Source: Thermomicrobiales bacterium (lineage in GTDB: Bacteria > Chloroflexota > Chloroflexia > Thermomicrobiales > UBA6265). Taken from it: a DNA stretch of 44,382 bases. Below the pieces are notes generated by a model that was not told the DNA's origin, searched no databases, and worked only from the letters and a program-made list of their open reading frames with translations. This document shows positions 7,413 to 8,303 of this stretch, piece by piece. The position numbers were made by a program, and so were the translations under genes. Numbering within the stretch: the first letter of the stretch is position 1; each line of letters opens with the position of its first letter. The stretch covers positions 1-44,382 of the forward strand of contig JAPXRQ010000003.1 in NCBI GenBank assembly GCA_033813515.1, in the 5' to 3' direction.

Positions 7413-7520
7413 TTATGGGCATTCGTTATCCGTCGACTGTCGGCGGAGCCCCAGACGCAATGCCGCCGCACCCGCCGCGGCACTGGCCAGCACCCAGACA
7501 CCGGTTCGCGCCGATCCATC
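7413..7520 (-). other. In-frame continuation after the TAG stop, encoding the missing hydrophobic and charged tail of an LPNTG sorting signal
   Basis: Same frame as the 7521..8303 CDS. The sequence after TAG reads DGSARTGVWVLASAAAGAAALRLGLRRQSTDNECP then TAA. It aligns with the paralog tails ...GSGAASKLIPVAAVGAGAALLARLGLRK. Confidence 0.8.
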
Positions 7521-8303
7521 CTAAACCCCGGAACCGGTGTTGGGCAGCTGGTTGACTGGGGCCGTGGTCGAGACAGGCGATGGCGGTATCTCGGGCGAGC
7601 CAGGTTCGGTGGGGACCGGGGTCGTCGTTCCGCCGGCAACACAGACGTTGCCCTGGCAGGTCAGCCCGTCCCCACATCGCGCATCCGGTTCGGTATCGGC
7701 CGAGCAGCAATCATCCTGGCTGCAGCGTCCGTCGCAGCAGATACCGGCCGCGCATTGGCTATCAACCGTGCAAACAAAATTGGCCGGATAGCAATACCCG
7801 TCAACGCAGACCTGGTCAAGCGAGCATTCATAAAAGAACTGGGAACTGCACGCGTAGGCCATACAGATGCCACCCCGACACTCCCCACCACAACATTGCT
7901 CGCCATTGGTGCACGGCATCCCAAACGAACCGCACTGGATGCAGATCATGCCCTTCTCGGTCTCGGCACACGTGCCCGAGCAGCAATCGCCCATTGCGTC
8001 GCACCCCTCGCGTTCGGAGATGCACCTGACGCAAACGCCATACCAGCACGATCCACTGCAACAATCATCCGAGAACCCGCACGTTTCGCCATCCGCCTGG
8101 CAGGTTGCACACGTCCCCTGCGTGCAGATGCCAAGGCAGCAATCGCTATCGGTGGTGCAGGTGTCCGGGTCTTCGCATTGCGCGGTCGCCCTGCGCCGTC
8201 CAGCGATTCCACCGGCGATGGCGGCCAATCCGCTCAGCAGGGTGCGGCGGGAGGCTCCGTGCGCAAATGTTCTCGAGACCTGGTCGAATCGTTGCGGGTC
8301 CAT
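7521..8303 (-). CDS. Secreted cysteine-rich repeat protein with twin-arginine-type leader and C-terminal LPNTG motif (sorting tail cut off by TAG)
   Basis: ATG at 8303 is preceded by GAGGTG. The leader is MDPQRFDQVSRTFAHGASRRTLLSGLAAIAGG. At least 4 tandem C-x5-6-C-x5-CC-x3-C-x4-8-C modules are present. The ORF ends ...APVNQLPNTGSGV then TAG. Confidence 0.75.
   Translation of the reverse strand: MDPQRFDQVSRTFAHGASRRTLLSGLAAIAGGIAGRRRATAQCEDPDTCTTDSDCCLGICTQGTCATCQADGETCGFSDDCCSGSCWYGVCVRCISEREGCDAMGDCCSGTCAETEKGMICIQCGSFGMPCTNGEQCCGGECRGGICMAYACSSQFFYECSLDQVCVDGYCYPANFVCTVDSQCAAGICCDGRCSQDDCCSADTEPDARCGDGLTCQGNVCVAGGTTTPVPTEPGSPEIPPSPVSTTAPVNQLPNTGSGV

Follow-up and report, generated by a model that had tools for sequence, protein, structure and literature searches.

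Does the in-frame TAG codon that separates an LPNTG motif from its hydrophobic segment and charged tail reflect a real mutation, a regulated signal or an error? We analyzed this question for a cysteine-rich protein gene in a stretch of DNA of 44,382 nucleotides from a Thermomicrobiales bacterium (hereafter the window). The preliminary description of the locus had offered three interpretations of the stop: a very recent nonsense mutation, regulated read-through that yields two isoforms, and a sequencing or assembly error.

On the minus strand, the end of the gene reads ...AAC CAG CTG CCC AAC ACC GGT TCC GGG GTT TAG GAT GGA TCG..., and the C-terminus of the truncated product is ...NQLPNTGSGV. 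The TAG lies three residues past LPNTG, and the GAG that it replaced is the fourth codon after the motif. At base 7523, the window has A on the plus strand (T on the coding strand), whereas the sister strains have C on the plus strand, which gives GAG (Glu). Past the TAG, the same frame continues for 35 codons, DGSARTGVWVLASAAAGAAALRLGLRRQSTDNECP, up to a TAA. Thus, the preliminary claim that an in-frame TAG splits an LPNTG sorting signal was confirmed, with the anchor sequence intact from the stop to the TAA at 7415-7413.

The ORF tool placed the start of the gene at ATG 8336 (271 aa), upstream of the start supported by the orthologs. All seven orthologs begin with MDPQRFDQ at ATG 8303, which gives a product of 260 aa. 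The truncated CDS encodes a putative signal peptide, cysteine-rich modules, a Pro/Thr linker and LPNTGSGV. The hydrophobic segment and the charged tail are missing from the translated product of the window allele. The best 14-residue Kyte-Doolittle mean of the segment is 1.89, and RLGLRRQ follows it, likewise after the TAG. The segment is translated in P0003, P0005 and all orthologs. The coordinates of these and the other features are collected in Table 1.

An open frame of at least 35 codons follows the stop in 13 of the 29 other genes of the window (DNA of ~60% GC). Since such frames are common here, the open frame alone is no evidence, and the argument rests on homology. A chance open frame was considered and rejected: the content is specific, aligns with the tails of paralogs and is translated in sister strains. 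Just downstream of the ancestral TAA, a hairpin is predicted (-26.2 kcal/mol, z = -2.9), which may be a terminator. The consensus terminator scan gave no match at the end of the cysteine-rich gene; it missed the hairpin because the hairpin has no T run. The predicted hairpin fits with a transcript that would still end at the end of the full-length gene.

Table 1. Features of the window, with positions counted from its first nucleotide.
Feature	Position	Strand	Basis
Truncated CDS, 260 aa and TAG	7521..8303	-	ORF; start by orthologs P0001-P0007
N-terminal leader, residues 1-42, MDPQRFDQVSRTFAHGASRRTLLSGLAAIAGGIAGRRRATAQ	8178..8303	-	motif inspection
Cysteine-rich modules, residues 43-222	7638..8177	-	repeated pattern C-x5-6-CC-x-G-x-C-x3-7-C-x2-C
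Pro/Thr-rich linker, residues 223-252, GGTTTPVPTEPGSPEIPPSPVSTTAPVNQ	7548..7637	-	read from the translation
LPNTG sortase-type motif, residues 253-257	7533..7547	-	L, P, T and G invariant in the family alignment (20 members)
In-frame TAG	7521..7523	-	7523 is the private variant
Hydrophobic segment VWVLASAAAGAAALRLGL, untranslated, membrane-spanning part of the ancestral sorting signal	7446..7499	-	aligns with paralog tails
Charged tail RRQSTDNECP, untranslated, and ancestral stop TAA (7415-7413)	7413..7445	-	translation, sister strains
Hairpin just 3′ of the ancestral TAA, between the convergent cysteine-rich and rhaM genes	7368..7411	-	predicted fold
Four tandem paralogous surface-protein genes	8515-9405, 9455-10372, 10464-11462, 11603-12565	+	intact sorting signal
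Fifth paralog, intact LPNTG sorting signal	30364..31320	-	sequence
Sigma factor/beta-propeller gene pairs	14867-18417, 18741-22165, 22239-24331; 28107-30283	-; +	domain scan

The paralogs within the window served as an internal reference; each of the four tandem genes carries an intact LPNTG, a hydrophobic segment and an RLG.R tail. The stretch after the TAG aligns with the tails of these four and of the fifth paralog: LPNTG is followed by an 11-residue spacer, an Ala/Gly/Leu-rich segment and an invariant RLG.R. The likeness to five paralog tails that had been pointed out before is therefore borne out. The name HYR given to these paralogs fared less well. They are LPNTG paralogs, but PF02494 matches only two of the five, with E-values of 3.4e-4 and 0.011 that are both below the gathering score, and the label is weak.

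No sortase domain was found among the 37 gene products of the window that were scanned. The anchor models (PF00746 Gram_pos_anchor and the NCBIfam LPXTG anchor; cut-offs E <= 10 for Pfam and 0.1 for NCBIfam) matched neither the read-through sequence nor the intact P0003 nor the five intact paralogs. These models may be tuned to Firmicutes and Actinobacteria. Since the window has no sortase and even the intact proteins have no match to an anchor HMM, we assign the cysteine-rich protein and its paralogs as putative sortase substrates by their tripartite architecture and its strong conservation. A literature search on sortase in Thermomicrobiales returned no paper, and one on Chloroflexi and sortase returned nothing usable.

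By inspection, the leader (MDPQRFDQ...SRRTLLSGLAAIAGGIAG...ATA-Q) combines a twin-arginine motif with a hydrophobic core and an AxA site, and it resembles a twin-arginine signal peptide in which A-T-A would be the cleavage motif. The family conserves this leader, and F6, R19 and R20 are invariant across the aligned members. The signal-peptide models in NCBIfam and Pfam gave no match to it. An extended leader, MDxQRFDxLxR...SRRxxL, is common to the cysteine-rich family and the four tandem LPNTG paralogs, and looks like a twin-arginine leader specific to this lineage. Tat-type export would be unusual for a protein with ~44 cysteines.

The cysteine-rich modules may be knottin-like. No Pfam family matched them at threshold; below threshold, they resemble inhibitor-cystine-knot toxins (Pfam Toxin_21, Conotoxin_I2 and Omega-toxin, E = 0.01-0.03; PDB 2m36, E = 0.035). 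In the AF2 model, one beta-hairpin is predicted per module, with a pLDDT of 70-92 in the modules and a mean pLDDT of 66. A Foldseek search with this model gave no significant match, and the best local ones were knottins with E > 0.4. A Pro/Thr-rich linker similar to the one in this protein precedes LPNTG in the paralogs of the window.

A comparison with orthologs and other strains had been proposed in the preliminary description. The protein search returned one cluster at 90% identity, with 7 members and at least 11 metagenome contigs. All seven members are 296-297 aa long and have the full sorting signal with a sense codon at the position of the TAG. The closest strain is represented by a contig of 8,707 nt (L004; Logan assembly of SRR21487924, an independent metagenome), which is collinear with window positions 438-9144. 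Over these 8,707 nt there are 2 mismatches, at 6270 and 7523. At 6270, CAA versus CAG both encode Gln in the molybdate-binding-protein gene. At 7523, the plus strand has A in the window versus C in the contig, which gives TAG versus GAG (Glu). Two other contigs, L007 (SRR22840553) and L008 (ERZ724512), also have GAG, and the rest of the last 201 nt of the gene is the same as in the window. In the 105 nt past the TAG, the window shows no change against the strains that bear GAG.

A second C-terminal haplotype (haplotype B; L001 and L005) shares 59-70% nucleotide identity with the window in this region. It has GGA at the aligned codon, and retains LPNTG, the hydrophobic stretch and RLGLRRQ. The gene is mosaic between strains. 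L005 is the same as the window over codons 1-210 and then falls to 59-69% nucleotide identity; in L008, codons ~60-240 are diverged and the last 60 codons match the window exactly. The two C-terminal haplotypes thus appear to recombine, unless the metagenome assemblies are chimeric.

The wider family was found in a search of 1.84 billion representative proteins. Its members share an MDxQRFDxLxR...SRR leader, cysteine-rich modules, a Pro/Thr linker, LPxTG, a hydrophobic segment and an R/K tail. Among the remote relatives (E <= 1e-10), 16 of 18 have the complete LPxTG, hydrophobic segment and R/K tail, and the other two look like fragments. Since the orthologs and relatives keep a complete sorting signal, the anchor is a conserved and selected part of the protein. 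The exact truncated product, in either its 271-aa or its 260-aa version, had no record in any other assembly. The genome-contig scan gave only a weak match in a Thermomicrobiales MAG (41% identity over 63 residues), and the metagenome-contig scan only a contig of ERZ724513 that was already known. The high GC content and the distribution of the family agree, though weakly, with an origin in Chloroflexota.

Since GAG is present in three independent assemblies (L004, L007 and L008), the comparison of sequences identifies the TAG as derived, and as private to the source genome of the window. The preliminary description had stated that a sense codon in related genomes would make the TAG an error. 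This does not follow; all that the sense codon shows is a derived and recent origin of the stop. With the 105 nt behind it unchanged, the TAG is too recent for downstream decay. A very recent origin is also indicated because the closest strain differs at only one other site, a synonymous one, in 8.7 kb. From these comparisons, the TAG is probably a real and recent nonsense mutation, GAG to TAG; of the three earlier interpretations, this one has the strongest support.

What the sister strains share, however, is also what would be seen if the T at 7523 were a sequencing, assembly or consensus error, or a minor variant of the population that had been captured, and the real gene had GAG and encoded the anchored protein of 296 aa. 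Only a single base is concerned, every other assembly that covers 7523 has G, and the truncated product is recorded nowhere else, so that the T allele has no independent confirmation. An error would also account for the absence of downstream decay. Furthermore, G-to-T changes are a typical artefact of oxidative damage in library preparation, and the change at 7523 is of this class. Against an error stands the quality of the surrounding sequence. The near-identical contigs L004, L007 and L009 allowed a comparison over about 11.4 kb of the window; apart from the TAG, there are four differences, all of them synonymous at third positions, with no frameshift and no missense change. This pattern points to real strain divergence under purifying selection and to an accurate assembly. 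At a divergence of ~4e-4 per site, real substitutions would be expected to far outnumber consensus errors. Since the differences look like true polymorphism and the assembly is clean, a real mutation is favoured over a base-call error. We therefore consider an error unlikely, although it has to be kept in mind, and the earlier suggestion of one stands only as the less likely explanation when set beside the mutation. A truncation that is old, selectively maintained and fixed in the lineage as a secreted allele is very unlikely. Some pathogens do retain secreted alleles of proteins that are otherwise anchored to the wall, such as NanA (PMC5817201), but here the allele is on no other contig. Nor is there time for a long history: the GAG strains have the same 105 nt past the stop, and only one other site differs in the flanking 8.7 kb.

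The same data bear on whether the TAG could be a site of programmed or regulated read-through, or a recoded sense codon, by which released and anchored forms would come from one gene. The anchor-coding sequence past the TAG is fully intact and in frame. Low-level natural read-through is expected at any stop codon and in bacteria is typically well under 1%. However, TAG ends 12 of the 29 other genes of the window and is the commonest stop codon there. The adjoining rhaM gene also ends in TAG, and its Pfam match is full-length, up to the end of the profile. No tRNA gene was found within the 44,382-nt window. The stop is present in no ortholog or inspected family member, which have GAG (haplotype A) or GGA (haplotype B), and is thus not conserved. 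Since the downstream sequence is identical to that of the GAG strains, it evolved as coding sequence rather than as a signal for read-through. The TAG is followed by a G, and this context is not known to be leaky in E. coli. Pyrrolysine at the TAG, or a reassigned TAG, was rejected, as no stop codon is more common in the window than TAG. Regulated read-through with two isoforms, as had been proposed, is thus not upheld, and recoding or programmed read-through has very little to commend it as an account of this codon. Any anchored protein made by background read-through would be a trace at most.

If the TAG is a real nonsense mutation, its consequence can be outlined as follows. The ancestral protein would be an exported, cysteine-rich surface protein that leaves the cell by a twin-arginine-type leader, as judged from the motif. 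Its hydrophobic segment and Arg-rich tail would keep it in the membrane, and a sortase would then cut within LPNTG and link it to the envelope. A hydrophobic domain and tail are required for membrane retention before sorting, and deletion of the sorting signal sends substrates to the supernatant (PMC5569036). On the coding strand, GAG would have become TAG by a single G-to-T transversion (C to A on the plus strand, at 7523), and translation of this allele would end at ...LPNTGSGV. The product would lack the stop-transfer segment and the charged tail, and would not be held in the membrane after export. With the loss of membrane retention, efficient cleavage and attachment by sortase would be lost, and the protein would be released or degraded. 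From established sortase biology, we infer that the localisation would change from wall-anchored to released.

The motif itself is kept, and exogenous LPETG peptides are incorporated into the walls of S. aureus by SrtA (PMC3929722). For this reason, the released protein could be a weak substrate in trans. We consider it improbable, though, that the TAG allele is both real and functional, with the released protein, whose C-terminal LPNTGSGV would be exposed, captured in trans by the sortase of its own cell or of a neighbour and with trace read-through adding an anchored fraction. If that were true, the population would be polymorphic between anchored and shareable forms of the protein.

Several other features of the window were observed. 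Four times, a gene for an ECF-type sigma factor stands next to and ahead of one for a large PQQ-like beta-propeller protein, and these adjacent pairs look like a repeated regulatory module. Two large proteins carry RTX calcium-binding nonapeptide repeats (1581-3266, minus strand; 26236-27963, plus strand), with 16-17 matched stretches each. An 842-aa ORF that ends near the window edge (41841-44369, minus strand) has four SpaA domains (prealbumin-like fold), as in Gram-positive pilins and adhesins. A 995-aa ORF (37335-40322, plus strand) matched no Pfam family; its GC content drops to 0.50, especially at 38001-40000, compared with ~0.60 elsewhere, and this low-GC segment may be foreign or recently acquired. 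The sequence downstream of an SDR gene is present in two copies ~4 kb apart (14632-14843 and 18516-18712) that are ~80% similar, which was seen as a second BLAST match of contig L009. A molybdate-related cluster (4283-6867) comprises genes for SBP_bac_11, Oxidored_molyb (5002-5565), a TOBE protein and a ModA-like binding protein (5932-6867). The SBP_bac_11 protein (4283-4861) lacks the first ~40 positions of the profile. Since the gene is the same in L004, its shortness is not an assembly artefact.

For annotation, the gene is best treated as a recent pseudogene, or as a truncated allele whose intact form encodes an anchored protein of 296 aa. A real mutation here would add one more natural point mutation that switches a wall-anchored protein to a released one, in an uncultured lineage whose sortase biology has hardly been studied. 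With the TAG placed after the motif and ahead of the membrane segment, the sorting signal is cut cleanly into its two halves. The family itself, with its Tat-like leader, tandem knottin-like cysteine modules and LPxTG anchor, may merit more attention than the stop.

Comparable natural alleles, caused by a nonsense mutation or a frameshift, are well known. In Listeria monocytogenes, natural nonsense alleles of inlA, which are specific to strains, remove the C-terminal anchor, and the truncated protein is secreted, according to the account in PMC5131979 and its reference 8 (Nightingale et al. 2005). The premature stops of inlA resemble the TAG allele in that a sortase anchor is lost by a nonsense mutation. 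The inlA stops in that account, however, lie upstream of LPXTG and the motif is lost, whereas the stop in the window lies three codons past the motif, which is kept. The inlA alleles reported there come from many isolates with a measured phenotype; the TAG allele was seen once, in sequence data. In Streptococcus pneumoniae TIGR4, a premature stop releases the normally wall-anchored NanA, and both forms exist in the species (PMC5817201). This is again a strain-level mutation in which a premature stop changes an anchored protein to a released one. In NanA, the cause is a frameshift that removes LPXTG, whereas the TAG allele is a point mutation that keeps LPNTG. The secreted allele of NanA is enriched in invasive isolates, which suggests selection (PMC5817201). 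Engineered deletions of the sorting signal, in protein A and in CD3392 and CD2537 of C. difficile, also send the protein to the supernatant (PMC5569036). Those are laboratory constructs in Firmicutes, whereas the window carries a natural allele of an uncultured Thermomicrobiales. Set beside these systems, the TAG is an ordinary nonsense polymorphism private to a strain, or possibly an error; it is a known kind of allele with no new mechanism, and the motif that is kept despite the stop is a curiosity that adds no new principle.
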